From the NCBI GenBank assembly GCA_964472295.1, contig CAYYJQ010000009.1, positions 244 through 64,243 of the forward strand: a stretch of 64,000 bases of DNA. The letters run 5' to 3'. The translations under genes were made by a program, and so were the position numbers. Numbering within the stretch: the stretch's first letter is position 1; the number at the start of each line of letters is the position of its first letter. Below are positions 3,752 to 60,151 of the stretch, piece by piece. The notes under the pieces were generated by a model. That model saw only the letters and a list, made by a program, of their open reading frames with translations, made no database searches and had not been told where the DNA came from. The DNA comes from an uncultured Thermodesulfobacteriota bacterium (lineage in GTDB: Bacteria > Desulfobacterota > GWC2-55-46 > JADFVP01).

Positions 3752-3965
3752 TCCCCACATACCCCTTGCGCCCCTTGCGCCCTGCCCTGTCCCCCTGGCC
3801 CGCTGACCGCACAAACCCTGCTATCCCCCTGCACCACTCCCCCCACTCCCTCATGCCCCCCTGCCCCTTTGCCCCCTATGCCTTGTGTGTGCACCCTCCC
3901 TGCCAGTGTGTCCTCCTTTTCCCCCTTTTCCCCCCCTGTCCCCCTTTAGGCCCCCTGGCCCCTAC
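3752..3965. repeat. ~210-bp low-complexity tract that is C-rich on the plus strand, so G-run-rich on the sense strand of the upstream minus gene. It carries GGGGCAAGGGGC-type motifs.
   Basis: Read directly: ccccttgcgccccttgcgccctgccctgtccccctggccc...cccccctgtccccctttaggccccctggcccc. It lies immediately 3' of the PilZ gene stop. No credible ORF. Confidence 0.6.
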
Positions 3966-10490: not shown

Positions 10491-10805
10491 CAATCACTCC
10501 AACATTTTTTTACCGCGACTCAATGCCCCCCTCTTTTAAGCCGCCACAGAGCCAATAAAAAATATCTTCAATCTCTCCGGCATTTTTTTATCCGCGGCTC
10601 AAAGGCCGGTTCCTTTAAGCCGCGCAAGAGCGGGTAAAAAATCTTGTCAATCACTCCAACATTTTTTTATCCGCGGCTCGATGCCCCCCTCTTTTAAGCC
10701 GCCCCAGAGCGGGTAAAAAATCTCGTCAATCACTCCTATGTTTTTTTGCCCGCACCTTGAAGGTCAGTTCGTTTACGCCGCGCCAGACCCAGTAAGAGGT
10801 GTCGT
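10491..10805. repeat. Tandem direct repeat of period 78-79 bp, 3 full copies plus a degenerate 4th. It starts at the maf start codon and extends into the 3' end of the upstream GH57-like gene.
   Basis: The unit is caatcactcc-aacattttttta-ccgcggctc-Natgcccccctcttttaagccgcc-cagagcgggtaaaaaatct-gt. Copies begin at 10491, 10569, 10648 and 10727. Each carries T7-8 and A6-7 runs, and R1 and R3 carry C7 runs. The SD-like GGAGTGATTGA of maf is reiterated in every unit. Confidence 0.8.
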
Positions 10806-12840
10806 CAATCTCCCCGGCGCTGTGGTAGAGACGGAGAAAAAAAGTCGAGCCCCTCTCCCTGTAATCAACCATGGGCACGGGCAGTGCGTCTCCATGGTCC
10901 GAACTTATGGTAATCTTCTTCTCGTTATCTCCCATGCTCACCCAGCCCTCCGTGGCCCCGAGACACGACGAGGCCGAGATGGCCTGACTTACGGGGCTTG
11001 AGTGCGATACGGCGTGCCCCTGGAGCATGAACCTCTCGGGACGGGTCCCGCCGTTCACGGTCTCGTAGTAGAGTTGGTCTCTCTGAAAGGCCTCTGGCAT
11101 GAGCGTGAAGATACCGAGCCGCAGGGAAGAGGCCATGAGCCCCCGAAGCCTTAGCCTGTAGTGAAGGGTAAAGGAGCTATTTGAAAATGGGATGCGATAG
11201 GTCTTCTCGATTATTCCAATGGGCGACTCAATAGCGGCGAAGACGGATACGCCGTCATTGTCTTCAGTAACAGTGGGCGCAACGGGCAGGAGGTCCGTGG
11301 TCTTCCGGCCATGGCGGCTCGTCTGTATGAGGTGACCCGAGAAAAAGTCCGCGCCAAGGTCAATGGACTCGTAGTGTCCGTGGCTGATGGTGCCAATGAG
11401 GGGTTCTGGTGAGACAAGGGGAAAAGAGGCCGAACCAAGGGCAAGCCCCCTGTCCTTGAGGAGTTCAATCTCCACGGCCCCGGTGCATACCCTTAGCCGG
11501 GTCTCCGTCTCCTCTGTCTGGACCATGGGCATTAGCCCGGACCTCATTACAGCGCCTGCGCCGATATAGGGGCCGGCAAGGCAGAGGAGGTTGGCCTCCT
11601 GGTCTCTCCCGTTCATATCCTCATCTTCAGTCCCCTCTCCTGTTACTTCCACCAGTGCGTCCGTAAGGCCCGCTTCTCTCATGCGCCGCTCCGTCTCCAT
11701 TGAGAGCCAGCCCATGCCCTCGTTAAAGCGGGCGAATTTTTCATCCGTGGTATTTGTCCTGAAGTCCGAGGCCCAGAGTTCCGTGAGCGTCTCGCGCATC
11801 CTGTCCCAATCCCCTTCGCCTATTACCCCCGCCTTTCCAAGTCCGCGAAACCTCCTGTAGAGCCCCCTGCACCTCGCGTTTATATGGGCGCTGTCGCGGC
11901 CCGTGACCGACCACCTCAGGGGGTTGTACTTTTCCTGCTTCTTGCAGACAATGGGCGTCTCCACGGATTCGAGGCAAAGGGCCGGGGCCTCCCTGTCACT
12001 CTCAAACTTCTTGATAATCTCCACGGGCCGCATGAGTTCAAGCCCCCTCTCGCACCTTATGAGTTCAAGTATTCGCCTTATCCTCGAAAAGTCGCCGCGC
12101 CCGGTCCCGCCCCTTCCAGGGGTAAAGTCAAATATCTCGGCGTCATTGGAGTAGGCCGTGAAGGCGCGGTCCTCGGCGCGGCTGTAATGGGAGCGCAGGT
12201 ACTCCATGTATTCGTCCATGGGGACCTCGCCGCGCGCGGCGCGGGCGAACTTCTGAAAACCAATGGAATGAGACCAGAGGAGCCCTACTTCATCGCCGGG
12301 AACGAGCCCGGCGGCCCTCCGGGGCCTGTAGAGGAGGTCCTTCTCAAAACCGTTATGACGCGCCGAGTTGTTCCAGTCCATGATAATGGCCCTGTAGCCC
12401 GCTTCTTTATATAGTCCCGTAAGTCCTGCTGAATAGGTCTGCTCGTTCACAAGGGCAATCCCGGGGCGTCTTCCAAGTATCTCCTCATAGCCCCTGCACC
12501 CAAGTTCAAGGTTCCACCTGTTCACCTCTGCCGGGATAAGGGGCATGATGCACTGGGCATGGCCAGAGCCGATAAAGTCGAGGGCGCCCTCGGCCCAGAG
12601 TTCGCGGAGGCGGAGCGTAAAGGCGGGGTCAAGGTCCCGCACCCTCTGAAGGGTCCAGGCCGTCATCTCAATGGCCACGGCCAGCCCGGACTCGGCAAGG
12701 CGAAGTATGGGCCAGTAGCAACTCTTTATTACAGAGGGAAAGTCGCGGCTGTCTATGAGCGAGAAGGCGAGATTGCAGTGAAAGAGGGCATAGACCGAGA
12801 GCCCTGGCAGGGGCTTCTCCTCAAAGGAATTTTTTCTCAC
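10726..12840 (-). CDS. Large (704 aa) GH57-like member of the glycoside-hydrolase/deacetylase superfamily. Function unknown; presumably sugar processing in the glycosylation island.
   Basis: The N-terminal ~300 aa resembles the GH57 catalytic barrel, with a FIGSGHAQCIMPLIP block like the GH57 'yyHpIlPL' motif. The canonical HxHQP motif is replaced by FHCNLAF. The C-terminal half is unrecognised. The stop codon lies inside the tandem repeat. Confidence 0.35.
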   Translation of the reverse strand: MRKNSFEEKPLPGLSVYALFHCNLAFSLIDSRDFPSVIKSCYWPILRLAESGLAVAIEMTAWTLQRVRDLDPAFTLRLRELWAEGALDFIGSGHAQCIMPLIPAEVNRWNLELGCRGYEEILGRRPGIALVNEQTYSAGLTGLYKEAGYRAIIMDWNNSARHNGFEKDLLYRPRRAAGLVPGDEVGLLWSHSIGFQKFARAARGEVPMDEYMEYLRSHYSRAEDRAFTAYSNDAEIFDFTPGRGGTGRGDFSRIRRILELIRCERGLELMRPVEIIKKFESDREAPALCLESVETPIVCKKQEKYNPLRWSVTGRDSAHINARCRGLYRRFRGLGKAGVIGEGDWDRMRETLTELWASDFRTNTTDEKFARFNEGMGWLSMETERRMREAGLTDALVEVTGEGTEDEDMNGRDQEANLLCLAGPYIGAGAVMRSGLMPMVQTEETETRLRVCTGAVEIELLKDRGLALGSASFPLVSPEPLIGTISHGHYESIDLGADFFSGHLIQTSRHGRKTTDLLPVAPTVTEDNDGVSVFAAIESPIGIIEKTYRIPFSNSSFTLHYRLRLRGLMASSLRLGIFTLMPEAFQRDQLYYETVNGGTRPERFMLQGHAVSHSSPVSQAISASSCLGATEGWVSMGDNEKKITISSDHGDALPVPMVDYRERGSTFFLRLYHSAGEIDDTSYWVWRGVNELTFKVRAKKHRSD

Positions 12841-17430: not shown

Positions 17431-18642
17431 TTAACTGCCTTGCATAGACCTCTCAAGCCCCACGGCCCCGTTGCCAAAGTTGCCAAAGTTAATAGATACC
17501 CTGCCCCCTTTCCTGCCAAGCGCTGTTATGGCCGCGTTTATATCTTGAAGTTCAAAGGAACGTCCCTCGGCAGTATCGAGTTCCACAAGGCCCTGCTCAT
17601 GAAGCCCCAGTATCCATGGTATGGCAAGAGAGGGGTTTGACGATCCGTATAGCGAGCCCAGGAGTCTCTTCTCAAGGTGAAAGTCCACGGCAGGGAGGGT
17701 GAGGTCCTGAAGGGGGTGGGGCGAGCCCACCATGACTACCGTGCCTCCCCTTCGAGTCGCTTCCAGTGAAGACCGCACCGTCTCACCAGTGGCAACACAG
17801 TCAAATGCAATGTCCACGCCAATGCCGCCTGTAAGTTGCAATATCTCGTTCCTATCAATGCGTTCCGCGTAGTGGTCAACGCCATTCTTATTCCACCTGC
17901 TCCTCTCGCGCTCAACGAGCATGACCATGCCAGCGCCCCTGTGCCTCAGTGCCTCCACAACCGCGCGCCCAACGTTCCCCCCGCCAACAACAAGTGCCCT
18001 CTCACCCCCTCTCATGTATGGAGCGGCTGTGCGGAAGACAGCCCCAAAGGCAGTTACAACAGGGCAGCCCGCAAGGGCGGCCTCTTCTGGACCAAGGCCA
18101 TCCGGGACCTTGACACAGCCCGTCCTGTATACGACGGTATACTCACTGAAGGACGATACGCCGTTAAAATGGAAAATTACGCCCCCGTCTTCGCCCCCTC
18201 CGCTCCCTTTGGCCCCTTTGCCCCCCTTGGCCCCCTTGGCCCCCTTGCCAAGTCCGCCATCTTTAAACCTTGTTGTCCCGTCGGGAAGAAGCCCCCTGCC
18301 CCGTGGCCAGGCAATGGAACTGCATAATTGAGTCTCGCCTCGGGCGCAAAAGTAGCACCTCCCGCAGAAGGCCGCCCAACTGAGGGCCACGCGCTGGCCC
18401 GGCCTTAGGTCATGGACACCAGCGCCTGTCTCCACCACCGTGCCGACTCCCTCGTGGCCCAGGACAAGGGGCATCTCATACCTTGTGTGGCCGCTAATGG
18501 CGTTGAGGTCGCTCCTGCAGAGCCCGGCTGTCTCCATCTTCACAAGGACCTCTTCAGGTCCCGGCGGGGCGAGAGTAATCTCTCTAACCTCAAGGGGCGT
18601 GTCTTTTCTTGTGAGCACTGCGGCCCTTGTCTCTATGGCCAA
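17431..18642 (-). CDS. Zinc-dependent alcohol dehydrogenase (MDR family) carrying an in-frame Gly-Lys-rich insertion (GKGAKGAKGGKGAKGSGGGEDGG).
   Basis: LCRSDLNAISGH...GHEGVGTV...CGRCYFCARGETQLC are ADH Zn motifs. The insertion at 18170-18260 is encoded by the same GGGGCAAGGGGC repeat seen in intergenic tracts. Confidence 0.7.
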   Translation of the reverse strand: MAIETRAAVLTRKDTPLEVREITLAPPGPEEVLVKMETAGLCRSDLNAISGHTRYEMPLVLGHEGVGTVVETGAGVHDLRPGQRVALSWAAFCGRCYFCARGETQLCSSIAWPRGRGLLPDGTTRFKDGGLGKGAKGAKGGKGAKGSGGGEDGGVIFHFNGVSSFSEYTVVYRTGCVKVPDGLGPEEAALAGCPVVTAFGAVFRTAAPYMRGGERALVVGGGNVGRAVVEALRHRGAGMVMLVERERSRWNKNGVDHYAERIDRNEILQLTGGIGVDIAFDCVATGETVRSSLEATRRGGTVVMVGSPHPLQDLTLPAVDFHLEKRLLGSLYGSSNPSLAIPWILGLHEQGLVELDTAEGRSFELQDINAAITALGRKGGRVSINFGNFGNGAVGLERSMQGS

Positions 18643-24417: not shown

Positions 24418-25440
24418 TCACCGGTGGGGAAGCCCTGAAAAGGGCATGTCCCCGGCAAGGGATCTAAGATAGCCCTCGTTTCTGATGGTCGATGAATTTA
24501 TCTTTAATAATTCAGGTATTCTGTCAATAAGTTCAAGTATCTCCTCCATATAGAAGACCCTCAGCGGACAGGCAAAACTCTGGAAGACCTTACGGGCAAA
24601 CTCAAGGTCGCGGCCATCGTCCACTGTCCAGCGCATATGGGAGAGGTCTTCTATATTAGGAATGGAACGCACTCTGAACCTCTGCCTGTTTTTCCATATA
24701 TGGGGCGTGACGTGCTCTCTCTCCGAGGGCAGAATTGCTTCTTTAAAGGCACGGTCAAGTGCATGGAAGGTGAAGACCTCTGTGTCGAGGCCATCTGGAA
24801 AGGTTCCGTCAAGGCCCATGTAATCGAGGTCAGGGGCGTTGAGGAACTCCTCGACAACCCTCTCCACAAGTATGGGGTCTATCATGGGGCAATCGGCTGT
24901 AACGCGCACCACGGTTCGTGCTCCATGCTCTTTTGCCGCGCCATGATAGCGGGAGAGCACATCAGAGAGCGCACCCCTGTAAGAGGCCACGCCCTCAGAT
25001 GAGCACCAGCGCGAGATAATGTCATCGGAAGAGTGTGTGCTCGTGGCGACCACTATTTCATCAATGGCCCTTACATACCTCAGGCGGTTTATAACGTGCC
25101 AGAGCATGGGCCGTCCGCAGATTTCCCGCATCACCTTTCCGGGAAGCCTCGTGGAACTCATCCTTGCCTGCACTATGGCGACAACGGGCCTTCGCGGTGT
25201 TTGCGCGCCAAAGGGCCTCTTCGCGCCCTCCGCGCCTCGCGTCCCCCTTCTTGCATACCTCTCTCCCCCTGTCTCCCTATCTCCCATCTCCCCCCTTGGC
25301 CCCGTCGCCCCCATCGCCCCCGTCGCCCCCTCTCCCCCTGTGCCACTCGCCCCCTCTGCGATCTTCAACCCCTTTGCCCCCATCGCCCTCTCTCCCCTTG
25401 GCCCCCCTGGGCGCATGTCTCTCAACATAGGTCCTCCCAC
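24418..25440 (-). CDS. pseF: CMP-pseudaminic acid synthetase / acylneuraminate cytidylyltransferase (PseF-like) with an N-terminal collagen-like Gly-X-Y extension.
   Basis: The core reads VVAIVQARMSSTRLPGKVMREICGRPMLWHVI..., the CMP-NeuAc-synthetase family motif. At least 35-90 aa of Gly-rich sequence precede it (GAKGLKIAEGASGTGGEGATGAMGATGPRGEMGDRETGGERYARRGTRGAEGAKRPFG). The true start lies somewhere between 25440 and the MGDRE codon. Confidence 0.65.
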   Translation of the reverse strand: MGGPMLRDMRPGGPRGERAMGAKGLKIAEGASGTGGEGATGAMGATGPRGEMGDRETGGERYARRGTRGAEGAKRPFGAQTPRRPVVAIVQARMSSTRLPGKVMREICGRPMLWHVINRLRYVRAIDEIVVATSTHSSDDIISRWCSSEGVASYRGALSDVLSRYHGAAKEHGARTVVRVTADCPMIDPILVERVVEEFLNAPDLDYMGLDGTFPDGLDTEVFTFHALDRAFKEAILPSEREHVTPHIWKNRQRFRVRSIPNIEDLSHMRWTVDDGRDLEFARKVFQSFACPLRVFYMEEILELIDRIPELLKINSSTIRNEGYLRSLAGDMPFSGLPHR

Positions 25441-28930: not shown

Positions 28931-28970
28931 TCCCCGCCCCCCCTGCCCCTACTTGCCCCCTAAGCCCCCT
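28931..28970. repeat. G-run tract on the minus sense strand (GGGGCTTAGGGGGCAAGTAGGGGCAGGGGGGGCGGGG) around the fliW stop codon, overlapping its last ~11 nt.
   Basis: Read directly. Same motif family as 3752-3965. Confidence 0.55.
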
Positions 28971-29457
28971 TTGCGGCGTCCTCACGGGCCGCGTCAAGAC
29001 CCGCAAGTTCCACGGCAAACCGGCACTCGTATTCGTCTCTGTCTATTATGCACTGCATGGCGAGCATGGACCCGGTATTCAGCAAGACCGGCGCCTTGAG
29101 GTTCAGGCTCACGCTACCCTTTACCTCCGAGGCCGATACCATGACAAAGACCACAATGGAATCAACTGAAGAGGCCCCAAGGTCTTGAAGATAATTATCC
29201 CTCAAGGGCACGGTGTACCCTGACTTGAAGAGACGGGGATATGTGAGAAGAAAGGCAACCCCGGGGTCCTCAATGGACTGAAGCCACTTGAAGACCCCGT
29301 CACTGTCATGATCAAGAAGGACAAAATCCCTCAGACCCTCGAAACCGGGCATGCCGCGAACAAGCCGTATCACCTTCGCGCCCTCCACCCGTATCACCCC
29401 AAAACGCGAAGACTCGAACTCAATCATCCCTGCGGAGATCTCATCTCTTTCCCTCAT
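28960..29457 (-). CDS. fliW: Flagellar assembly factor FliW, the CsrA antagonist.
   Basis: 165 aa of DUF180/FliW type (MIEFESSRFGVIRVEG...GMPGFEGLRDFVLL...). It is adjacent to csrA. AAGGAGA lies 9 nt upstream of the ATG at 29457. Confidence 0.75.
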   Translation of the reverse strand: MRERDEISAGMIEFESSRFGVIRVEGAKVIRLVRGMPGFEGLRDFVLLDHDSDGVFKWLQSIEDPGVAFLLTYPRLFKSGYTVPLRDNYLQDLGASSVDSIVVFVMVSASEVKGSVSLNLKAPVLLNTGSMLAMQCIIDRDEYECRFAVELAGLDAAREDAAKGA

Positions 29458-29722: not shown

Positions 29723-29746
29723 GCTTTCTTTTGGAAAAAAGAAAGT
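29723..29746. repeat. AT-rich palindrome family, copy P2: GCTTTCTTTTGGAAAAAAGAAAGT, followed by TTTTTGATTGAAG.
   Basis: It lies 40 nt upstream of the csrA GTG start. Same arms as P3-P7. Confidence 0.6.
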
Positions 29747-29862
29747 TTTTTGATTGAAGCGCATTGTCCCTCTGGTTTTTTGGAACCTGTAGCATAACAG
29801 GCACTTTTCAAAAGTAGAAACATCGCCAGAGAAAACCAATATTCAAAGGTCCTATTTCTCTG

Positions 29863-29942
29863 CCGCCCCCCCACTCAAATCCCCTGTCGCCCCCCCTTTG
29901 GTCCCCCCCATGCCCTCTTGGCCCCCATGCCCCCATGGCCCC
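29863..29942. repeat. G-run tract on the minus sense strand immediately 3' of the flgL stop.
   Basis: On the plus strand: ccgcccccccactcaaatcccctgtcgccccccctttggtcccccccatgccctcttggcccccatgcccccatggcccc. Confidence 0.55.
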
Positions 29943-50973: not shown

Positions 50974-51269
50974 ATTCCAAGACCTCCGTTTTTACAGTAT
51001 AAAAGCAGGGCAAAACCCCTATGGCCTGAAAAATACAGGCCCACTCAATACATGACCCGGATTTCAGATCTCTTTCTTTATGGGAAATCCTATTTTATAC
51101 GTTTTTACAGGCAGGTGCAACATAAAACTACAGCATGGTATCAGCGAAAGCCTGATTAACAAGGCACACTCAAAGACAAAGGATGAAGATTAGAGCATTG
51201 ACAATACAGACCACTATGCTCTAATGGAAAGAAGAGAGGGAAAGGGAAAGAGAGAAAAAAAAGATTTTC

Positions 51270-51299
51270 CTTACTTTCTTTTAGAAAAAAGAAAGTAAG
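51270..51299. repeat. AT-rich palindrome family, copy P3: CTTACTTTCTTTT-AGAA-AAAAGAAAGTAAG, with 13-bp perfect arms. The AAAGAAAACCAAT box follows.
   Basis: Read directly; identical over 48 nt to copy P4. It lies ~125 nt upstream of the aconitase-family gene. Confidence 0.7.
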
Positions 51300-51422
51300 A
51301 CAAAGAAAACCAATAGGAGGCGAGGTTTTTTTGTATCTCTGAGCCGCACCTCCGCCCTACACGGCAGCGCGGTTTTGAAAAAGTAAGACAGGGAAAACCA
51401 ATGGCCCGGACGTGAGTGAAAG

Positions 51423-53369
51423 ATGAAAAGGCCTCTTGCCAGAAAAATAATAGAAGACCATCTTGAGAGCGGCAGATGGGAACCAGGCACAGAAGCGGCC
51501 ATGAGGGTCGACCAGACCCTCACGCAGGACGCCACGGGCACGCTCGCCTATCTTGAACTCGAGGCCCTGGGCATTGACAGAATCTCCACCGAACTCTCTG
51601 TCAGCTACGTGGACCACAACCTTCTTCAGACAGACTTCAAGAACGCCGACGACCACCGCTTTCTTCAGACCTCGGCAATGCGCTATGGCCTTTATTTCTC
51701 GCCTCCCGGCAACGGCGTATCACACCCCGTACACATGGAGCGCTTTGGCGTGCCGGGAAAGACCCTCCTTGGCTCGGACAGCCACACATCCACTGCCGGA
51801 GCCCTCGGCATGATAGCCATAGGCGCCGGCGGACTTGACGTGGCACTTGCCATGGCTGGAGAACCCTTTCACCTGAAGATACCAGAGGTCTTTGGCGTAA
51901 GGCTCACCGGAAGACTCAGTCCCTGGGTCTCGGCAAAGGACATTATACTCGAGATGCTCCGGCGCCACAGCGTAAAGGGCGGTGTGGGTTATATTATAGA
52001 GTACTTCGGCCCCGGCGTCCGCGCACTCTCGGCCACAGAACGGGCAACCATAGCAAACATGGGCGCGGAACTCGGGGCCACGACAAGCATATTCCCCTCG
52101 GACGAAAGGACACGGGAATTTCTAAGAAGACAGGGCCGTGGTGACGCGTGGCGACCGATCCATGCGGACCCTGGCGCGCCTTATGACAAGGTGGATGAAA
52201 TAGACCTCTTGGCCCTTGAACCCCTTGCCGCGCGGCCCGGTTCACCTGACGATGTAGTTCCTGTCGGAGAACTCAAAGACATAGAAGCCGCGCAGGTCAT
52301 CATCGGCTCTTCCGTGAATTTTTCCTTCCACGACCTCATGATAGTGGCCCGCGCCCTTGAAGGCCGGACCATTCACCCCGGCATTAGCCTTGAGATAAAC
52401 CCCGGCTCTCGAAACGCCCTTGAAAACGTCGAGCGTGCCGGTGGGACGCGGCTACTCACCCACGCGGGCGCCCGCATAAACCAGTCAGGATGCCTTGGAT
52501 GCATAGGCATGGGGCAGGCCCCGGCAACAGGCACGGTCTCGGTGCGCACCTTTCCTCGAAACTTCAAGGGCAGAAGCGGCACGGAAGACGATCAGGTCTA
52601 CCTCGTAAGCCCCGAAACCGCCGTCGCGACGGCAATCACTGGCCGCATTACAGACCCGCGCACCCTTGGCCCCTTACCCCGCGTTATCGAACCCAAAAAA
52701 TACATATATAATGACTCGATAATCATTAAACCCCTGCCCGAGAAAGAACGGAGAAAAGTCCGGGTAGCAAGGGGCCCCAATATAAAACCCTTCCCAAGGT
52801 TCACGCGCCTCCCGGCAAACTTCAGCGGCAAGGTCCTCCTGAAGATGGGCGACAACGTGACAACTGACCATATCCTGCCGGCAGGTAACCGCATACTGCC
52901 CTTCAGGAGCAATATACCGAGCATAAGTGAATTCGCCTTCGAGCGTATTGACAGAACCTTTGCCGCGCGTTGCAAGGCCGCTGGAGGCGGCATTGTAGTA
53001 GGGGGAGAGAACTACGGACAGGGCTCGTCGCGCGAACACGCCGCCATAGCCCCACGATACCTCGGCATAAGGATAAAAATAGCAAAATCCTTTGCCCGCA
53101 TTCACCGCGCAAACCTCATAAACATGGGCATCATACCCCTCACCTTTGCCTCCCCCTCGGGATACAATAAGATAAAAGAAGGAGACACCGTAGACTTCCC
53201 GAATATAAGAGAGGCCTTAAAAAAAGGACGTGACTCCGTAATAGCCGTAATCAGAAAGAAAAAACCTGTAAACATAACCCTGAAGATGGACCTCGGCAAG
53301 AGAGAGAGAAAAAATATCCTCGCCGGAGGACTCCTTAACGCAGTAAGAAAAAGACGAGAAAAGAAGTAA
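51423..53369 (+). CDS. Aconitase-family hydratase (aconitase/homoaconitase-like). The large and swivel domains are fused.
   Basis: 648 aa. ...GSDSHTSTAGALGMIAIGAGGLDVALAMAG... is the aconitase Fe-S ligand region. Cys ligands lie in CLGCIGMG, and the C-terminus is a swivel domain. Confidence 0.75.
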   Translation: MKRPLARKIIEDHLESGRWEPGTEAAMRVDQTLTQDATGTLAYLELEALGIDRISTELSVSYVDHNLLQTDFKNADDHRFLQTSAMRYGLYFSPPGNGVSHPVHMERFGVPGKTLLGSDSHTSTAGALGMIAIGAGGLDVALAMAGEPFHLKIPEVFGVRLTGRLSPWVSAKDIILEMLRRHSVKGGVGYIIEYFGPGVRALSATERATIANMGAELGATTSIFPSDERTREFLRRQGRGDAWRPIHADPGAPYDKVDEIDLLALEPLAARPGSPDDVVPVGELKDIEAAQVIIGSSVNFSFHDLMIVARALEGRTIHPGISLEINPGSRNALENVERAGGTRLLTHAGARINQSGCLGCIGMGQAPATGTVSVRTFPRNFKGRSGTEDDQVYLVSPETAVATAITGRITDPRTLGPLPRVIEPKKYIYNDSIIIKPLPEKERRKVRVARGPNIKPFPRFTRLPANFSGKVLLKMGDNVTTDHILPAGNRILPFRSNIPSISEFAFERIDRTFAARCKAAGGGIVVGGENYGQGSSREHAAIAPRYLGIRIKIAKSFARIHRANLINMGIIPLTFASPSGYNKIKEGDTVDFPNIREALKKGRDSVIAVIRKKKPVNITLKMDLGKRERKNILAGGLLNAVRKRREKK

Positions 53370-53406
53370 AAAATAAGAAGAAAGAAGAGATAAGAAAAGA
53401 TATTTC

Positions 53407-53436
53407 CTTACTTTCTTTTAGAAAAAAGAAAGTAAG
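53407..53436. repeat. AT-rich palindrome family, copy P4 (identical to P3), followed by ACAAAGAAAACCAAT.
   Basis: It lies ~100 nt upstream of the putative cpgS start. Confidence 0.7.
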
Positions 53437-53533
53437 ACAAAGAAAACCAATGGGTTTTCACTCTACCCTCTCTTTCCTCCTCCCCCAGGGCCTCTCTCTT
53501 GATTTCGACTGACAATCAGTATATGCTCATAAC

Positions 53534-54865
53534 ATGAAGAAAAAAATCATCATAATGGGCGCCGCGGGCCGTGATTTTCATAACTTCAATGTCCTCATGA
53601 GGGATAACCCTGAATATGAGGTAAAGGCCTTTACAGCCGCGCAGATACCGTTCATCGAAGAACGCACATATCCCGCGGAACTCGCGGGTCCGCTCTACCC
53701 CGGGGGCATCCCCATATACTCTGAAGACAGGCTCGAAGCCCTCATAAAAGACCTCGCCATAGACGAGGTCCTCTTCTCATACAGCGACATCTCCTACACC
53801 GGGCTCATGCATAAGGCCTCGCTCGTGAACGCCGCCGGCGCCGCCTTTACCCTCCCTGACCCCTCACGCACCATGCTCGCTTCAACAAAGCCCCTAATAT
53901 CCGTATGCGCCGTAAGGACGGGCTGCGGAAAGAGCGCCGCGACAAGATACATCGCGGGCATTATTAAGAATTCCGGCCTCCGGCCCGTTGCCATACGCCA
54001 CCCCATGCCCTACGGGATACTCAATAAAGAACGGGCAATACAGCGCTTTGCCGCCCTCGAAGACATTAGAGAACAGGAATGCACCATCGAGGAGATGGAA
54101 GAATATGAGCCCCTCGTGGAGGCGGGCATTGTAGTCTACGCGGGCATAGACTACGAGGCCATCCTCAGAAGGGCCGAAGAAGAGGCGGATGTAATAATCT
54201 GGGACGGCGGCAATAACGACACGCCCTTTTACCGCCCAGACCTCGCCGTAACCATAGCCGACCCACTTCGCCCCGGTGATGAGCGCGCCTATTACCCCGG
54301 AGAGACGAATGTGCGCCTCTCTGACTGCGTAATAATAAACAAGGCCCGCTCGGCAACAGCGCCCGCCATCAAGGACGTTGTTGAGAGCGTCAAGGACATA
54401 AACCCCGGCGCTCTAATACTCCGCACCGCCTTTACCCTGACCATAACAGGAGAACTCGAACCACATAAAAAGGTCCTCGTCGTCGAGGACGGCCCAACGC
54501 TCACACACGGGGGCATGACCCTTGGCGCTGGAGTAGCCGCCTGCAGGGAGCATGGCTGGGTCCCGGTGGACCCCCGGCCACATGCCGTTGGCTCCATAAG
54601 GGATACCTTTAATAAATACCCCCATGTAAGAGGGCTCCTCCCTGCCATGGGATACTCGCCGGAACAGGTCCGTGAACTTGAAGAGACTATTAACGCCGCG
54701 CCCGCGGACGCCGTGGTAATAGCCACCCCCATTGACCTTGGCCGGATTACGAGGATAAAAAAACCAGTCATAAGGGTAACCTACGAGATTGACGACTTCG
54801 ATGACCATGGCCTCAGGGCACTTATAGAGGGCTTTATAAAAAAAATCTCCGAGGTGAAAGGATGA
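53534..54865 (+). CDS. cpgS: Putative cyclic 2,3-diphosphoglycerate synthetase (CpgS family).
   Basis: 443 aa. The N-terminus MKKKIIIMGAAGRDFHNFN and a P-loop-like RTGCGKSAATRYIA fit my recollection of the archaeal cDPG synthetase family. This rests on memory and needs confirming by search. Confidence 0.45.
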   Translation: MKKKIIIMGAAGRDFHNFNVLMRDNPEYEVKAFTAAQIPFIEERTYPAELAGPLYPGGIPIYSEDRLEALIKDLAIDEVLFSYSDISYTGLMHKASLVNAAGAAFTLPDPSRTMLASTKPLISVCAVRTGCGKSAATRYIAGIIKNSGLRPVAIRHPMPYGILNKERAIQRFAALEDIREQECTIEEMEEYEPLVEAGIVVYAGIDYEAILRRAEEEADVIIWDGGNNDTPFYRPDLAVTIADPLRPGDERAYYPGETNVRLSDCVIINKARSATAPAIKDVVESVKDINPGALILRTAFTLTITGELEPHKKVLVVEDGPTLTHGGMTLGAGVAACREHGWVPVDPRPHAVGSIRDTFNKYPHVRGLLPAMGYSPEQVRELEETINAAPADAVVIATPIDLGRITRIKKPVIRVTYEIDDFDDHGLRALIEGFIKKISEVKG

Positions 54866-55710
54866 AGGGGTTTACCGCATACCTTGCCAAACGCTACATC
54901 GCCGGTGATGAGCGAAGCGATGCGCTGAAGGTCTGCCGCGCTCTTAACGAACTCGGCATCACCGCCACAGTGGACGTGCTCGGCGAGGGCGTCACTGACG
55001 AGGCCCATGCCCGCGCCGCCGTGGAAGAATACACTGCCCTCCTCCATGATATAAAAGAGACGGGCGTTGAAGCCTCCATCTCGCTGAAACTCACTCACCT
55101 TGGCCTTGATATTTCTCATGCCCTTACAGAAGAAAACCTCTCGGCCATACTCAGAGAGGCCCGGCGCTTGAAGATATTCACGCGGCTTGACATGGAGCGC
55201 TCCCAGTACACGGAAGACACCCTGAGTATCTTTTTGAAGGTCCACGAGGACTACCCAAACTCTGGAATTGCCATACAGAGCGCGCTTGTGAGGAGCGAAA
55301 GAGATGTAAAACGCCTCATCGATGCCAGGGCCAGCGTCCGCCTTGTAAAAGGGGCCTACATGGAACCCCCTGGCGTGGCCTTTCAGGAAAAAAAACTCGT
55401 TGACATAAACTACGTCACCATCATGAAAGAATTACTCACAGGCGGCAGCCGCCCGGCCATAGCCACACACGACGAGGCAATAATCAACGAGGCAAAGGAA
55501 TTCATAATCGAGAAGAAGATAAAAAAGGACGCCTTTGAGTTCCAGATGCTACTTGGAATAAAGAGGTCGCTTCAAAAAGAACTTGCAAAAGAAGGCTTCA
55601 GGGTGCGCGTCTACGTTCCCTATGGAAAGGACTGGCTTGCCTATGTGCTACGGCGTCTCAAGGAGCGAAAGGAAAATATCTTTTTCGTGGTGAGAAATAT
55701 TCTGGACTGA
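54862..55710 (+). CDS. Proline dehydrogenase (small monofunctional PRODH family).
   Basis: RLVKGAY motif (ASVRLVKGAYMEPPG) and C-terminal RVYVPYGKDWLAYVLRRLKERKENIFFVVRNIL are characteristic of PRODH. 282 aa. Confidence 0.65.
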   Translation: MKGFTAYLAKRYIAGDERSDALKVCRALNELGITATVDVLGEGVTDEAHARAAVEEYTALLHDIKETGVEASISLKLTHLGLDISHALTEENLSAILREARRLKIFTRLDMERSQYTEDTLSIFLKVHEDYPNSGIAIQSALVRSERDVKRLIDARASVRLVKGAYMEPPGVAFQEKKLVDINYVTIMKELLTGGSRPAIATHDEAIINEAKEFIIEKKIKKDAFEFQMLLGIKRSLQKELAKEGFRVRVYVPYGKDWLAYVLRRLKERKENIFFVVRNILD

Positions 55711-55721
55711 AAAGATTGGAT

Positions 55722-55768
55722 GGTGGGCACAGCCCACCCGGCTGACCGCCCTGCAAGGCGCTTTTTCA
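55722..55768 (+). terminator. Possible terminator region of the cpgS-prodh operon: hairpin GGTGGGCACAGCCCACC, then a weak CGCC-ctgcaa-GGCG stem followed by CTTTTTC.
   Basis: Read directly. There is no strong contiguous U-run, so confidence is low. Confidence 0.3.
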
Positions 55769-55885
55769 ACGACGTATATATTGCGCCAATATTGGTTTTC
55801 TTTGATGTGGTTTCTTTCTGGTAAAGTGTGTCTATTATGCGCCAGGTCCAAAAAATCCAGAGGGACATAACAGCCCAATAAAAAA

Positions 55886-55909
55886 ACTTTCTTTTTTCTA
55901 AAAGAAAGT
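55886..55909. repeat. AT-rich palindrome family, copy P5: ACTTTCTTTT-TTCT-AAAAGAAAGT. A half-site TTTACTTTCTTTTAG lies at 55927-55941 and abuts the mogA SD.
   Basis: Read directly; it lies 45-70 nt upstream of the mogA ATG. Confidence 0.65.
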
Positions 55910-55954
55910 GGGAAATTTTCTTTTGCTTTACTTTCTTTTAGAGGAGAGGCACCC

Positions 55955-56446
55955 ATGATTACAGCGGCCATACTTACAATAAGCGACAAGGGTTCCCGCG
56001 GCGAGCGCGAGGACCTGAGCGGAGCGGAGATCCGCGCCATGCTCGCCACCCTGCCTGCCGAGATAAGCGCCTACGAGATCGTACCCGACGAGACAGAGCA
56101 AATCAGCGCTAAAATCATTCATTTCACAGACGAACTTGGCGTGGACCTTGTTGTGACCACAGGCGGCACTGGCGTGACGCCCCGCGACGTTACCCCCGAA
56201 GCCACGCGGGCAGTTATTGAACGGGAACTTCCGGGCATGAGCGAGGCCATGCGCGCTGAAAGCCTCAAGAAGACTCCCCACGCCATGATCTCACGGGCCG
56301 TCTGCGGAACAAGAGGCCAGTCGCTCATAATAAACCTCCCCGGAAGCCCGCGCGGGGTGCGCGAAAACCTCGAGGTTCTCATGCCGGCGCTCATGCATAC
56401 CATAAAAAAAATTAAAGGCTCCACCGAAGAATGCGGCGGTAAATAA
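55955..56446 (+). CDS. mogA: Molybdopterin adenylyltransferase MogA/MoaB family.
   Basis: MITAAILTISDKGSRGEREDLSG...LVVTTGGTGVTPRDVTPEATR is the MogA signature. 163 aa. Confidence 0.8.
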   Translation: MITAAILTISDKGSRGEREDLSGAEIRAMLATLPAEISAYEIVPDETEQISAKIIHFTDELGVDLVVTTGGTGVTPRDVTPEATRAVIERELPGMSEAMRAESLKKTPHAMISRAVCGTRGQSLIINLPGSPRGVRENLEVLMPALMHTIKKIKGSTEECGGK

Positions 56447-56530
56447 GAGAAGAAAGAAGAGAAGAAAAAGATTGAGGAGGGCGGGCTCCGCCCGCAAAAA
56501 GAAAAAACAAAAGAAAAAGAAAGAGAATTT

Positions 56531-56557
56531 CTTACTTTCTTTTAGAAAAAAGAAAGT
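56531..56557. repeat. AT-rich palindrome family, copy P6: CTTACTTTCTTTT-AGAA-AAAAGAAAGT, followed by CTTTTGATTGGG.
   Basis: It lies in the convergent mogA/moaE intergenic region. An AAAGAAAACCAAT box (56639-56652) and a GGGTGGGCTGTGCCCACC hairpin follow. Confidence 0.65.
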
Positions 56558-56731
56558 CTTTTGATTGGGCGGCGAAGCCCATCTCAATTCTTTGGTCATT
56601 ACGCATGACAGGCAAATTTTGCCAGAAAGAAAGCGCGTCAAAGAAAACCAATAGTGGAGTAGGGTGGGCTGTGCCCACCAAAAAAAATATTGCAAGATGG
56701 GTGGAACGTAGTGAAACCCAACAAAATCACC

Positions 56732-57175
56732 TTACGGCGTTTCCGAGACCCATACCTCGCCCGAGGATGTTGTCTCGCGTTTCCAGATGGGTGTGGTGCG
56801 CTTTAAATCCGTAATGGCCCACTCGCAGGCCATGAAGGCGTCGTTACGGTGCGCCGAGGCCGCCACGATAAGCACAATGTCCTCGCCTATATCAATATGA
56901 CCCGTCCTGTGGATAATGGCCATCTCGATTATATTAAAATTCTCGAGGGCGCGCCTCCTTATGTCTTCGAGTTTTTTTTCGGCCATGCCGGGATAGTGCT
57001 CGAAGTCCAGTCCGCTTATCTCCACGCCCTTTGAGAGGTCACGGGCCGTGCCCACAAAACTCACGAGCGCGCCAATGCCCTTTGAGGCCTTCTTTACCTC
57101 ATCCTGCACGGCCTCAATGGAAAAAGGCCCTTCCTGAATCCTTACAAGATTTTTCATAATTGCTTTTCTCTGCAC
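56732..57175 (-). CDS. moaE: Molybdopterin synthase catalytic subunit MoaE.
   Basis: ...GALVSFVGTARDLSKGVEISGLDFEHYPGMAEKKL...IIHRTGHIDIGEDIVLIVAASAHRNDAF is MoaE-type. The start is uncertain: the GTG at 57175 or the ATG at 57157. Confidence 0.75.
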   Translation of the reverse strand: MQRKAIMKNLVRIQEGPFSIEAVQDEVKKASKGIGALVSFVGTARDLSKGVEISGLDFEHYPGMAEKKLEDIRRRALENFNIIEMAIIHRTGHIDIGEDIVLIVAASAHRNDAFMACEWAITDLKRTTPIWKRETTSSGEVWVSETP

Positions 57176-57188
57176 ACTCTTTCAAGGA

Positions 57189-57390
57189 GGCATTGAGACG
57201 CCTTGCGTGGTCTATATTTGATGACGCATACCATGCGTTACTATTGGTTTTCTTTGACGCAACGTTTTAATGCCGAACCGAACCCATTGAGCCCCATGCT
57301 GTTTTAGTCAAACTGACCAGGGAGCATTGAGACGCCTTGCATGGTCTATATTTGGTGACGCATACCATGCGTTACTATTGGTTTTCTTTG
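57189..57390. repeat. Two ~72-bp direct repeats (57189-57262 and 57316-57390) in the moaD-moaE spacer. Each ends in an inverted AAAGAAAACCAAT box.
   Basis: CATTGAGACGCCTTGCRTGGTCTATATTTGRTGACGCATACCATGCGTTACTATTGGTTTTCTTTG occurs twice with only 2 mismatches. Palindrome P7 follows the second copy. Confidence 0.75.
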
Positions 57391-57392
57391 CT

Positions 57393-57420
57393 CCACTTTC
57401 TTTTTTCTAAAAGAAAGTGG
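57393..57420. repeat. AT-rich palindrome family, copy P7: CCACTTTCTTTT-TTCT-AAAAGAAAGTGG, with 12-bp arms.
   Basis: Read directly; it lies between moaD and moaE. Confidence 0.65.
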
Positions 57421-57467
57421 AAAAAAATACTCTTTTTCTCTTCTCTTTTCTTACTCTTTCCCGTCTT

Positions 57468-57716
57468 CTACCCGCCGGAAAAGGGCGGCAGGAGTCCCAC
57501 CACGTCTCCGTCGGCAACGAGTTCATCGTCACGGGCGAACTCTTCGTTCACCGAGACGAGGACGCTTCTGCTGCCAAGGACCTCGGCAAGGGCCGGGATG
57601 TCCTCGGAGAGCATTTCCTTCAATTCGCCAACTGTCATGGGTTCTCTTATCTCATACTCCTTGCTCGGAGCACCAGAGAGCCTCTTCAGCATGGCGAAGA
57701 ACCTTACCTCTACCAT
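57468..57716 (-). CDS. moaD: Molybdopterin synthase sulfur-carrier subunit MoaD (ThiS/MoaD fold, C-terminal GG).
   Basis: 82 aa ending ...GDVVGLLPPFSGG. Confidence 0.75.
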   Translation of the reverse strand: MVEVRFFAMLKRLSGAPSKEYEIREPMTVGELKEMLSEDIPALAEVLGSRSVLVSVNEEFARDDELVADGDVVGLLPPFSGG

Positions 57717-57838
57717 GGATGTTTCCTGTCTTCAAACCGAGTGAAATACAAAGCAATTGAGGCGCAAAGACGCCCTTGCAGTGAATATCTCTCAAAAAAA
57801 TGCAAGAGAGAAAAGAGGGGGGAGAGATTCCCTTACCG

Positions 57839-60151
57839 CTACTTGACTTTCTGCTCAAAGGCGCTCTCAAGGTCAATAATATCACGTCTTGCGGCCTTTG
57901 AAAAGAGGGCGGTAAAGGAATCTCCATCTGCGGGGAATTGTGCGGAGCCATAGTAGGCTGTAAGGTGTTCTTCAAGGAAGGATTTAGTGAGGAGGGGATT
58001 GTCTTTTATGGCCTTTATGACCGCGTCAACAACGCGCGTCACATCGCCGCCGGTCTCTGGATAAAGAAGTGCGAATACATCATCATCGAGCCTTGTCACG
58101 TAGTCGAAGTTCCGCGTCTCATTTTTTATTATATCGAAGAACTTGGCTGAGATGGCCTTCATCTTGTTCGGTGATATTCCCTCTGGCCCCATTATCCTGA
58201 GGCTTGAGAGCACAAAATGCTTGTCCTGGCGCCTCGCCCTGTTGAGTTCCTGTTCAACTGTCTTCTCAAGGGCCTCCATGGGGGAAAGCTCCCTTATACC
58301 CTTTGCCTTGCCGGTCTCGCCTGTCTGGGGCTTGAAGATGGTGATACCAAGGGCCCTCTCGGCAAAGATGAGGAACCTCTGGAGTATATCCGCGTCTTCG
58401 TCAGAGAAGGCCCCGGAGTACTGTGTGTCCTCATATATTTTATGAAAGAGTGTGAGGACGCCTTTTATCTCTCCGTCAACGTAAAGGGGGATGGAGAAGA
58501 CGCACTTTATGACAGGAGAGGCCTCTCTGGTGAACTCCCTTGATACGGGTTCATGCCTTCTCAGGACCTCAAGCACTGTCTCCTTCTCGATATAATGGAG
58601 TTCCTGCCTGATGCCCATATCATCGAGGCCATAGGTAGCGACTGTCTGAAAGCGTTTTTCGCCCTGCTCAAGCCTCAGAAGGGCGCCGTCAGCGGCTATG
58701 GCGTTGGCGGCCTTAGTGGCTATAAGGCGGGTAAGTTGCGCGGGGTCTGTTATGGTAATGAGTTCAAGGCCCACATCGTCTATACTCGTAACCTTCCTGC
58801 CCATGCGGTTATCGCGCTCAGACTCCATGGAGCGGTAAATGCTCTGAGCGACAAGGGTCCTAATATCCTTTAAAAACCCCTCGTGGTAGGCCGAGAGGCC
58901 TCCGGGGTTTACCACCTGTCCGCTGAGAGTGCCCACAAAGCGGTTGTTGCAGACCATGGGAAGCGATATATAGAGCTTCTTTATAATATCCTCCTCGGTC
59001 CTGTCCACGAGGAAGACGTCTTTTCTCGTCTCCATGGAGTAGCCCTCAATGCCCTGGCCCTTCCTGATGCCCCCGAATATGCCGAGCCCTCCCGTGCCGC
59101 CCGCGCTCGAGGCCTTGAGGACCAGGCTCCTGGTCTTGTCGTTATAGAGATAGAGAAGGCACGTCATTCCCGGAACCTCTCCGGCCACCTTTCTTGCGAG
59201 GGAGGCGAGGTTCTTGTCAAGGGGCGTCTCCGAGTTCATCATGCCGTCTATCTCCTTCCAGAAGGAGAACTTGGCCGCGTCAGAGCGTATGCCCTCGTAC
59301 TCAAGGGATTTATGGATTACCTCAGAGGCGAGGGCGGCGAACCTGGTGAGGAACTTGAGGTCATCATCAGAGTACAGGTCCGGCGACTCGCTGGAACTCA
59401 CGTTTATGACACCAAAGACCTTGCGGTCAACCATGAGGGGCACGCACATGGCGCTCTTGGCGTCATCACGCTCCATGGGCTTGAGGTATTTGCCCGGGTC
59501 CGCCCTGCCGGATATGATTACGGCCTTGCCCTTCTGCGCTACATGACCAGAGACACCTGTGCCAATGGGCACGCGTATCTTGCGGATAACCTCTTCGTCC
59601 ATGCCGCTTGCAGACTCCACGCGAAGGGCGTTCGCGGCCTCATCAAGAAGCATGATGGAAGAACGCTGTGCGCCCGTGAACTCTATTACAAGCTTCATTA
59701 TCACTGAGACGAGTTCTTTCCTGTCGGTTATAAGGTAGAGAGAATCCACTATTTCTCGAAGAGATGAGAATATGGCGTCCCTGTTGCCGCCCTTTTCCCC
59801 TTCCATGAAGGATCCGCGGACCTCCCATAGAAGCCTCGCGCCAAGGGGGCCGAACCTCTCCATTGATATAAAGTGCGGTGATTTGAGGAACTCCGAACTC
59901 TCGCTATCCTGAAGCGCGTCTATTACAGTATTGACATAGGGGTCGGCCTTTATCTCCTCAAGGTCATTAGTGGTCTTTATGTTGAGCCTTGGCGAGAGTC
60001 TGTAACCCAGTTCGTCAAGTTTGAATATCATGGCGTCCCTGTTGGGGTCGGCGATTATCCTAATATCGGTCTTGCCGTCCCCAAGGAGTATGGGAAGGAG
60101 TTTCAATGCCTCTTTGTTGGCCCCTATTATGGCAACGTGCTTGACGCCCAT
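57839..60151 (-). CDS. Large multi-GAF-domain signalling protein with an N-terminal Rossmann-like segment and a degenerate C-terminal GGDEF-like region.
   Basis: 770 aa. Repeated GAF-like blocks (SIMLLDEAANALRVESASG...VPIGTGVSGHVAQKGKAVII; CLLYLYNDKTRSLVLKASSAGG...) and a C-terminal ...RLDDDVFALLYPETGGD. Confidence 0.55.
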   Translation of the reverse strand: MGVKHVAIIGANKEALKLLPILLGDGKTDIRIIADPNRDAMIFKLDELGYRLSPRLNIKTTNDLEEIKADPYVNTVIDALQDSESSEFLKSPHFISMERFGPLGARLLWEVRGSFMEGEKGGNRDAIFSSLREIVDSLYLITDRKELVSVIMKLVIEFTGAQRSSIMLLDEAANALRVESASGMDEEVIRKIRVPIGTGVSGHVAQKGKAVIISGRADPGKYLKPMERDDAKSAMCVPLMVDRKVFGVINVSSSESPDLYSDDDLKFLTRFAALASEVIHKSLEYEGIRSDAAKFSFWKEIDGMMNSETPLDKNLASLARKVAGEVPGMTCLLYLYNDKTRSLVLKASSAGGTGGLGIFGGIRKGQGIEGYSMETRKDVFLVDRTEEDIIKKLYISLPMVCNNRFVGTLSGQVVNPGGLSAYHEGFLKDIRTLVAQSIYRSMESERDNRMGRKVTSIDDVGLELITITDPAQLTRLIATKAANAIAADGALLRLEQGEKRFQTVATYGLDDMGIRQELHYIEKETVLEVLRRHEPVSREFTREASPVIKCVFSIPLYVDGEIKGVLTLFHKIYEDTQYSGAFSDEDADILQRFLIFAERALGITIFKPQTGETGKAKGIRELSPMEALEKTVEQELNRARRQDKHFVLSSLRIMGPEGISPNKMKAISAKFFDIIKNETRNFDYVTRLDDDVFALLYPETGGDVTRVVDAVIKAIKDNPLLTKSFLEEHLTAYYGSAQFPADGDSFTALFSKAARRDIIDLESAFEQKVK

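Follow-up and report, generated by a model that had tools for sequence, protein, structure and literature searches.

An A/T-rich palindrome with a mirror-repeat tail in a Thermodesulfobacteriota genome: a candidate triplex-type intergenic repeat

Palindrome copies and their neighboring genes

Analysis of a 64,000-nucleotide (nt) stretch of DNA from an uncultured Thermodesulfobacteriota bacterium (assembly GCA_964472295.1, contig CAYYJQ010000009.1; here named the window) revealed a recurrent palindrome of the form ACTTTCTTTT-N4-AAAAGAAAGT. An earlier reading of the letters without database searches (here named the sequence-only reading) had proposed that this palindrome is either an operator of a dimeric global regulator or a family resembling repetitive extragenic palindromes (REPs) or miniature inverted-repeat transposable elements (MITEs). 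In this study, we closely examined the palindrome and its flanks. Seven matches to ACTTTCTTTTNNNNAAAAGAAAGT with two or fewer mismatches were found, as previously counted, against an expectation of 0.00 in 100 dinucleotide-preserving shuffles, and no additional palindrome appeared in the window at three mismatches. The matches start at positions 3589, 29723, 51273, 53410, 55886, 56534, and 57395. All arms had been described as perfect and all centers as AGAA or TTCT, which holds for the five copies at 51273, 53410, 55886, 56534, and 57395, but not for the copy at 29723, with one mismatch and the loop GGAA, or for the visibly degenerate copy at 3589, with two mismatches and an unclear loop. The copies at 51273 and 53410 share an identical stretch of about 49 nt, in line with the 48 nt reported before. 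Two more perfect palindromes lie just past the window end (locus L095, 18466 and 19743), giving about nine copies per 66 kb. The GC content of the window is about 55% and not the roughly 60% assumed earlier.

All copies in the window are intergenic according to JGI's own gene calls (contig Ga0256727_1000008, metagenome 3300023548), at a coding fraction of the contig of about 0.88. The neighboring proteins were identified as MotB, PilZ, FliW/CsrA, flagellin, an aconitase family member, a MogA-like protein, MoaE, and MoaD, in agreement with the gene names motB, pilZ, csrA, mogA, moaE, and moaD and the aconitase-like gene of the sequence-only reading. The exception is a 443-amino-acid open reading frame (ORF) at 53534 to 54865, previously named cpgS, for which no Pfam-A or NCBIfam match was obtained at an E value of ≤0.001, so that this name is unverified. 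The neighboring genes have no common functional theme, which argues against an operator of a global regulator.

Furthermore, a tail motif overlooked in the earlier reading, CAAAGAAAACCAAT, occurs in 10 copies in the window versus 0.5 expected and always lies beside the palindrome or in a palindrome-derived unit. Its core, AAAGAAAA, reads as the purine arm, AAAAGAAAG, in mirror image and is neither the complement nor a direct copy of that arm. On the purine strand, the order is pyrimidine arm, loop, purine arm, linker, and mirror purine block (class II layout), and the opposite strand reads TTTTCTTT, linker, pyrimidine arm, loop, and purine arm (class IV layout). The conserved core on the purine strand is (C)CCTT-ACTTTCTTTT-loop4-AAAAGAAAGT-AAG(A)-C-AAAGAAAA-CCAAT, its 45-nt sequence being CCTTACTTTCTTTTAGAAAAAAGAAAGTAAGACAAAGAAAACCAAT; a hypothetical direct-repeat form of the tail, as opposed to the mirror form, would read AAAAGAAA. 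The element ends are asymmetric, with CCYCCTT and the hairpin on one side and CCAAT on the other.

The copies fall into two types. In type A (51273 and 53410 on the plus strand, 57395 on the minus strand), the tail begins about 4 nt past the hairpin, stems reach 13 to 14 bp, and fold energies predicted for Watson-Crick pairs are −14 to −18 kcal/mol with z-scores of −3.4 to −5.3. The first type A copy (51265 to 51319) consists of a hairpin with a 13-bp stem (51270 to 51299), the linker AAGA, and the tail CAAAGAAAACCAAT at 51301 to 51314, and it sits in the presumed 5' leader of the aconitase family gene, downstream of a promoter-like pair at 51198 to 51225. A partial copy on the plus strand follows at 51373 to 51405 and comprises a right-arm remnant and tail (TTTTGAAAAAGTAAGACAGGGAAAACCAAT). 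The second type A copy (53402 to 53454) lies 38 nt past the aconitase family stop codon, with its hairpin at 53407 to 53436 and its tail at 53438 to 53451. The third (57375 to 57422) is located between moaD and moaE; its hairpin (57395 to 57418) has the outer pairs TCC/GGA, and its tail is at 57377 to 57390 on the minus strand. In the same spacer, two minus-strand direct repeats of 72 nt (57185 to 57256 and 57319 to 57390) are 94% identical; in each, the tail motif comes first and the perfect hairpin TAACGCATGGTATGCGTCA next. These repeats upstream of moaE have no match in Rfam, the molybdenum cofactor riboswitch included.

In type B (3589, 29723, and 56534 on the plus strand, 55886 on the minus strand), the hairpin is followed by NTTTTGATTGG, a semiconserved body of about 80 nt, and the tail. 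The copy at 3589 to 3712 lies between the convergent genes motB and pilZ and consists of the degenerate hairpin (3589 to 3612), GTTTTGATTGG, the body, and the tail CAAAGAAAACCAAT at 3697 to 3710. The copy at 29723 to 29842 is located between two minus-strand genes, the flagellin gene and csrA, with its hairpin at 29723 to 29746 followed by TTTTTGATTG and the tail CAGAGAAAACCAAT at 29827 to 29840; read in the csrA sense, it has the pyrimidine orientation and lies 21 to 45 nt ahead of the csrA ATG. The other two form an inverted repeat that brackets mogA (55955 to 56446), with arms at 55786 to 55939 on the minus strand (tail at 55791 to 55804, hairpin at 55886 to 55909) and at 56504 to 56657 on the plus strand (hairpin at 56534 to 56557, tail at 56639 to 56652). 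These arms of 154 nt are 78% complementary, and the right one lies between the convergent genes mogA and moaE. Further out, identical GC hairpins of the form GGTGGGC-N3-GCCCACC are present at 55722 to 55738 (GGTGGGCACAGCCCACC), just outside the left arm, and at 56663 to 56679, outside the right arm. The half-site reported upstream of mogA is indeed present at 55930 to 55939. It belongs to a truncated plus-strand copy (55922 to 55942; TTTTCTTTTG-CTTT-ACTTTCTTTT-AGA) with a third-strand-like segment and a pyrimidine arm, of which the purine arm is missing, and it is directly adjoined by GGAGAGG, the mogA Shine-Dalgarno (SD) sequence, as had been noted.

Also, polypurine (A/G) tracts of 25 to 45 nt were seen on the purine strand past a stop codon or promoter and ahead of the hairpin (3345 to 3385, 51228 to 51262, 53370 to 53400, 56447 to 56530, and, on the minus strand, 57423 to 57465), and likewise beside copies in the metagenome-assembled genome (MAG) CAYOVP01 (loci L008, L021, L023, and L048). 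Other repeats in the window are four tandem copies of a 79-nt AT-rich unit (AAAWATWTTCRTCAATCACTCC...TTTTTTA) at 10479 to 10815, between two long minus-strand ORFs of the flagellar region, and C-rich plus-strand repeats with a 9-nt period (CCCCCTTGG-like) at 3834 to 3970, 18182 to 18250, 25260 to 25413, 28934 to 28975, and 29899 to 29940. Some of the latter are intergenic, and some lie inside minus-strand ORFs, where glycine-rich low-complexity segments would result. A scan of the window for sigma-70-like sites gave no excess. Sigma-54, sigma-28, integration host factor, and UP-element/−35 sites were considered for the tail and the type B T-run and discarded by eye, as spacings or hexamers do not fit.

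Stem compensation and mirror register of the tail

Public genomes were searched with both hairpin arms only, i.e., the tail was not part of the query. In 93 of 108 hairpins, AAAGAAA was found 3 to 6 nt past the 24-mer on exactly one side, compared with a background of 0.6% per 16-nt window. An operator gives no reason for such a one-sided mirror tail, since a symmetric dimer site needs none. The loop sequence varies freely across these copies; a variable 4-nt center and a perfect, sharply conserved palindrome in AT-poor surroundings would also suit an operator. The consensus of 53 Thermodesulfobacteriota-type copies is (c)cCTT-ACTTTCTTTT-gGAA-AAAAGAAAGT-AAGaC-AAAGAAAACCAAT-a(t/g)GGG, with unrelated flanks.

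Three stem pairs outside the 10-bp core show double substitutions in 8, 15, and 13 of 53 copies, and few are unpaired. The variants include CTT/AAG, TCC/GGA, CCT/AGG, CCC/GGG, and CTC/GAG, and the outer stem cells are paired in 94.7% of cases versus about 54 to 65% with slid partners. These compensatory changes of the outer pairs point to a folded hairpin and not to a surface contacted by a protein, as binding by a dimer would not explain them.

The tail follows the stem in mirror register. Among the tail 7-mers of purine-arm hairpins in the fetched loci, 111 words are mirror-only versus 6 direct-only, and in all loci the counts downstream are 141 mirror versus 11 direct, compared with 50 versus 48 in the upstream control. 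In Lentisphaerae, the stem GAAAAGAAG carries the tail AAGAAAAG; in Nitrospirota, the stem GAAAGAAAAG carries AAAAGAAAG; and in Halarcobacter, the stem AAAAAAAAG carries AAAAAAA. A prediction was set before a further search, namely that the hairpin ACTTCTTTTT-N4-AAAAAGAAGT, with the G moved by one position, should carry AAGAAAA and not AAAAGAA. In metagenomes, this hairpin was found in 113 distinct contexts, with the mirror word CAAGAAAA in 22 and the direct word in 4. The shifted-G tails are again preceded by C and occur in two unrelated flank families at offsets of about 4 and about 16 nt. Stem and tail thus covary in mirror register in four sequence families, and a fifth family fits.

Two other pairings of the tail were considered. 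Watson-Crick pairing with the pyrimidine arm needs a direct repeat, which is disfavored by 22:4 and 141:11, and the alternative-hairpin model was therefore rejected. Pairing with the left flank TTTTCC appears in the predicted fold of the window copies, but this flank is not conserved in other genomes. Neither a templated mutational mechanism nor a logic of protein recognition that would favor mirror repeats is known to us; Hoogsteen pairing would be the one simple rationale for the relation.

Distribution, gene context, and related loci

A scan of one genome per species identified the exact hairpin in at least 94 loci. Most of the loci listed belong to several Thermodesulfobacteriota MAGs with many copies per genome. 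CAYOVP01, JBHHUW01, JBHHUP01, CAZEBZ01, and JAJRZX01 are among the MAGs with the element. Other hosts among the listed matches are Nitrospirota, Arcobacter/Halarcobacter, other Campylobacteraceae, Lentisphaeria, Bacilli, Clostridia, Bacteroidota, Stenotrophomonas (67% GC), and one Woesearchaeota MAG, so that the element spans at least eight phylum-level groups. A few MAG contigs are possibly misbinned, but the spread across phyla is real, because isolates, a complete Halarcobacter genome, and distinct flanks carry the hairpin. The same core in Stenotrophomonas, Arcobacter, Lentisphaeria, Bacilli, and Nitrospirota is a further point against an operator. Viral contigs gave four matches only, all on contigs of >340 kb or of unclear nature, and thus no sign of phage carriage. 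A nhmmer profile of the type B body yielded only weak matches outside the source contig. No Rfam match at the gathering score was obtained in the window or in 18 loci of other phyla, and a search of 51000 to 58000 at a permissive E value returned one chance-level match only (E = 0.55). No description of the element was found in the searchable literature; a text search with the arm sequences matched short hairpin RNAs and primers only.

In some of these hosts, the hairpin and tail are part of larger units. The Lentisphaerae MAG SIG97 carries tandem arrays with a 90-nt period (L033, 4560 to 5000; L003, about 3300 to 3450), the unit of which holds two different triplex-type hairpins (arms AAAAGAAAG and GAAAAGAAG), each of which has a mirror tail of its own. 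In Arcobacter/Halarcobacter (L002, L015, L055, L071, L085, and L089), hairpin and tail are embedded in a multicopy unit of about 230 nt, with conservation on both sides of them. This unit has no Rfam match, ends in a terminator-like hairpin and T-run of the same sense, and may be a multicopy small-RNA gene. In the Lentisphaeria MAG RGIG5270 (L020, L035, L073, L075, and L086), the element is found in pyrimidine orientation 50 to 90 nt upstream of paralogous pseudopilin-like genes encoding an N-terminal methylation motif and DUF1559, which suggests that it is part of the shared leader of this gene family.

We then classified 38 related copies by their position relative to genes and found 10 in convergent, 3 in divergent, and 25 in tandem settings. 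Together with the window copies between convergent genes (3589 and 56534), this distribution argues against an operator; several copies do lie upstream of genes, as an operator would. Of the tandem copies, 17 have the pyrimidine strand and 8 the purine strand in sense. A stop codon precedes the hairpin by no more than 45 nt in 22 copies, about 18 of which are at a distance of 2 to 14 nt. The start codon of a long ORF follows within 45 nt in 31 copies, and about 20 of these were judged convincing (e.g., L091, L090, L072, L027, L051, L052, and L063), many of which continue from the hairpin straight into AAGGAGG, AAGGGGG, or GGAAGG and have an ATG 10 to 27 nt downstream. The hairpin-side flank CCYCCTT belongs to the element itself. 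By our own count, the hairpin side lies within 16 nt of a gene in 14 of 38 copies and the tail side in none.

Related MAG loci that are about 70 to 74% identical in coding DNA allowed a comparison of orthologous sites. The element is missing at three of four comparable sites, namely, between moaD and moaE, between moaE and mogA, and upstream of the aconitase family gene; the one filled site lies downstream of a gene, which again argues against an operator. In L091, moaD, moaE, and mogA are codirectional, separated by 45 and 73 nt, and without the element. The corresponding moaD-moaE spacer of the window measures 292 nt, and the extra length of about 250 nt is due to the copy at 57395 and the two 72-nt repeats. 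Furthermore, mogA is inverted in the window relative to L091. Given the inverted type B copies on both of its sides, recombination between repeat copies appears to have turned the gene around.

Upstream of the aconitase family gene, a promoter-like pair is conserved, with TTGACA-16-TCTAAT in the window and TTGACA-16-TTTAAT in L030 (about 4125 to 4160, minus strand). In L030, it lies about 10 nt from the ATG, with no element upstream of the gene, and the mRNA may therefore be nearly leaderless, whereas in the window about 195 nt including the element separate the pair from the ATG. Only the copy at 53402 to 53454 has an orthologous counterpart, again in L030, where the core is identical at 47 of 48 positions and the flanks are unalignable. 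Compared with about 72% identity in coding DNA, this suggests constraint or gene conversion and not neutral decay. In L030, the orthologous hairpin and tail are directly followed by four tandem units of about 75 nt (1880 to 2150, minus strand) that each open with the tail, reading AAGACAAAGAAAACCAATAGGGGAATATTACTGCGCTGATAA.

Interpretation and alternatives

The element is multicopy, intergenic, present in both orientations, variable between relatives, and tied to local rearrangement, and the comparison of copies shows that, at the level of sequence, hairpin pairing and the mirror relation of stem and tail are kept through sequence change. We consider it probable (about 0.62) that the palindrome supplies the hairpin of a dispersed and modular REP-like triplex-type intergenic repeat, an AT-rich version of the potential intrastrand triplex (PIT) class. 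In single-stranded DNA, or in RNA of the pyrimidine orientation, the hairpin would form and the tail would lie in its major groove, with T.A-T and C+.G-C triples or, on the other strand, A.A-T and G.G-C triples. Selection would then preserve a three-stranded fold and not a protein-binding palindrome. REP-like consequences appear likely, with the copies acting as structural punctuation where transcripts end and as substrates for recombination, of which the mogA inversion would be an example. The hairpin end often lies 2 to 15 nt from a stop codon or supplies an AAGGRGG SD sequence ahead of start codons.

The closest described class is that of the PIT repeats (BoxC/TMECO) (Hoyne et al. 2000, as cited in PMC4666352). 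In Escherichia coli, these occur only between genes and show no strand bias, their loops are less conserved than their stems, and they are found in inverted pairs and at unstable loci; they showed neither promoter nor terminator activity (PMC4666352). Like the element described here, they consist of a pyrimidine arm, a loop, a purine arm, a short loop, and a mirror purine block (class II), with the pyrimidine-motif class on the opposite strand, and they share a length of about 37 to 45 nt, multiple intergenic copies without strand bias, inverted pairs, and local rearrangement or deletion. The ITxF class II definition comprises three consecutive blocks of 6 to 15 nt with loops of 1 to 6 nt, in which an A-A/G-G third block runs antiparallel to the purine block with at most one mismatch (PMC4666352). 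Type A copies fit it with the blocks CTTTCTTTT, AAAAGAAAG, and CAAAGAAAA, so that 8 of 9 triples match and C stands opposite G9 as the single mismatch; with 9-nt blocks, loop 1 has 4 nt and loop 2 (TAAGA or TGGAG) 4 to 5 nt. Type B copies fall outside, having about 80 nt between arm and tail. TMECO differs in being G/C-rich (CCCTCNCCC-N3-6-GGGNGAGGG-N3-GGGNGAGGG) and reported from Proteobacteria, and the A/T-rich core of our element has no sequence in common with its consensus. Unlike TMECO, the element also has three additional covarying stem pairs in predicted steric competition with the triplex, CCAAT and SD-like CCYCCTT/AAGGRGG ends, long modular forms, and a distribution over at least eight phylum-level groups.

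Other known systems are less similar. H-DNA also has a purine tract with mirror symmetry (here AAAAGAAAG ... AAAGAAAA) in which Hoogsteen triples can form, but it needs the mirror repeat alone, in a supercoiled duplex, whereas the added inverted repeat of this element puts the three strands on one strand. REPs and BIMEs are likewise short, multicopy extragenic palindromes in both orientations, near stop codons and convergent genes, and in mosaics. However, REPs are imperfect, GC-rich, species-specific palindromes without a mirror tail that are mobilized by RAYT, while this element has no GTAG head (its flank consensus is CCCTT/CCTCCTT), has no RAYT gene near it in the genome fragments inspected, and recurs with the same core across phyla.

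Several observations weigh against a triplex-type repeat. The E. coli TMECO triplex was observed only in isolated single strands and was undetected in vivo, and the purine motif cannot form in RNA (PMC4666352), so that only one orientation could give an RNA triplex, yet both occur in sense. The tracts with a single G are of low complexity, and the covariation comes from about four independent variant families plus the canonical one, as loci were ascertained by exact arm match. The hairpin side is nearer to the gene in 26 of 38 copies (Wilcoxon P = 0.13), which is moderate support for the proposed placement. Type B copies, with their long gap between arm and tail, are incompatible with the triplex layout given above. 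Triplexes of the A.A-T purine motif are weak. By our own reasoning, a full 13-bp stem and an 8-triple helix cannot coexist, because only 1 to 2 linker nt remain, which would not let the tail get to its mirror register at stem levels 1 to 8; with a 10-bp stem, the linker measures 3 to 6 nt in every family, typical for triplex loops. Either the element would be two-state, or one of the two covariation signals would have another cause. Finally, no transposase, terminal inverted repeats, or target duplication was found near copies.

An explanation that overlaps with the triplex-type repeat but places the selected function in RNA is a cis-acting element, which we regard as a tentative alternative. 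In pyrimidine orientation, it would be a triple-helix-capped hairpin (U.A-U/C+.G-C) 5' of its own SD sequence that stabilizes or tunes translation, and in purine orientation a 3'-untranslated-region hairpin protecting the mRNA end like a REP. The convincing start-side copies with SD-like sequences, the copies 2 to 14 nt from a stop codon, and the CCYCCTT flank as part of the element fit such a role, as do the often GNRA-like loops in purine orientation (GGAA, GTAA, and GTGA) and the same-sense terminator-like end of the Arcobacter unit. Yet both orientations occur in sense with an equally intact tail, only 3 nt of the SD sequence overlap the stem, and the type A copies at 51273 and 53410 are purine-oriented relative to their flanking genes. 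SAM-II and preQ1-II riboswitches and ENE elements offer a parallel in that pyrimidine RNA of this element could stack up to eight U.A-U/C+.G-C triples beside the ribosome-binding site; unlike these RNA triple-helix systems, it has no ligand pocket or pseudoknot, no Rfam match, and a multicopy, mobile-like occurrence in both orientations.

A nonautonomous MITE/REP-like mobile element, moved as single-stranded DNA by a hairpin-recognizing transposase encoded elsewhere, seems rather unlikely; its fold would serve recognition and not the host. Presence and absence at orthologous sites, the copy density, identical cores within unrelated flanks, the cross-phylum distribution, and the mosaic structure with GC-rich hairpins alongside would agree with mobility. 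On the other hand, the genome fragments inspected contained no recurring transposase-like ORF within 1.5 kb of the copies in 94 loci, and an all-against-all comparison of the 299 ORFs near copies gave small clusters only (DUF1559/N-methyl pseudopilin paralogs in Lentisphaeria, ABC ATPase, and others). Neither terminal inverted repeats, the element being asymmetric, nor a target-site duplication between filled and empty orthologous sites was seen, the junctions being too diverged to decide on the latter, and the near-identity of the orthologous copy at 53402 also speaks against such an element. The previously proposed REP/MITE-like label thus stands for the multicopy, intergenic, modular occurrence in both orientations and for presence/absence, and it is refined because no terminal inverted repeats, target duplication, GTAG head, or recurring transposase-like neighbor were found.

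Since the nucleotides of the linker are those of the outer pairs, the 13-bp hairpin and the 8-triple helix would exclude each other. This raises the speculative idea, which we consider improbable, of a two-state module that is under selection, as opposed to passive repeat DNA, and controls SD access in pyrimidine-sense RNA. The outer pairs include the AAG of AAGGAGG, and docking of the U-rich third strand would expose the ribosome-binding site, depending on temperature, Mg2+, and, via the single C+.G-C triple, pH. If true, this would be a portable triple-helix 5'-untranslated-region cassette spread across bacterial phyla and, outside riboswitches, the first RNA triple helix to act generally in the gene expression of bacteria.

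An intrinsic, possibly bidirectional terminator is very unlikely. Type B hairpins continue directly into a T-rich run (CTTTTGATT and TTTTTGATT), an A-rich tract comes before them, two of these copies are found at convergent gene ends, and a pattern scan listed the minus-strand versions of 51273 and 53410 as terminator-like. However, the stem contains 2 to 3 G-C pairs only, type A continues into an A-rich tail with no U-run, many related copies lie between the promoter region and the start codon, and terminator-like sites (15) show no excess over shuffles (10.9 ± 3.2). Least probable of all is the operator of a dimeric global regulator for molybdenum cofactor synthesis, the aconitase-like enzyme, csrA, and other genes, given the one-sided tail, the compensatory stem, the convergent positions, the empty orthologous sites, and the cross-phylum core.

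Bacterial intrastrand triplex repeats have been studied almost wholly via one G/C-rich family, BoxC/TMECO, to which no function has yet been assigned. A/T-rich candidates were largely set aside; Holder et al. (2015) treated such motifs mainly as possibly due to chance (PMC4666352). The covariation in mirror register across sequence families and phyla described here argues for selection on the three-stranded fold itself. For genome annotation, it means that palindromes of this kind should be treated as repeat elements and not as regulon markers.

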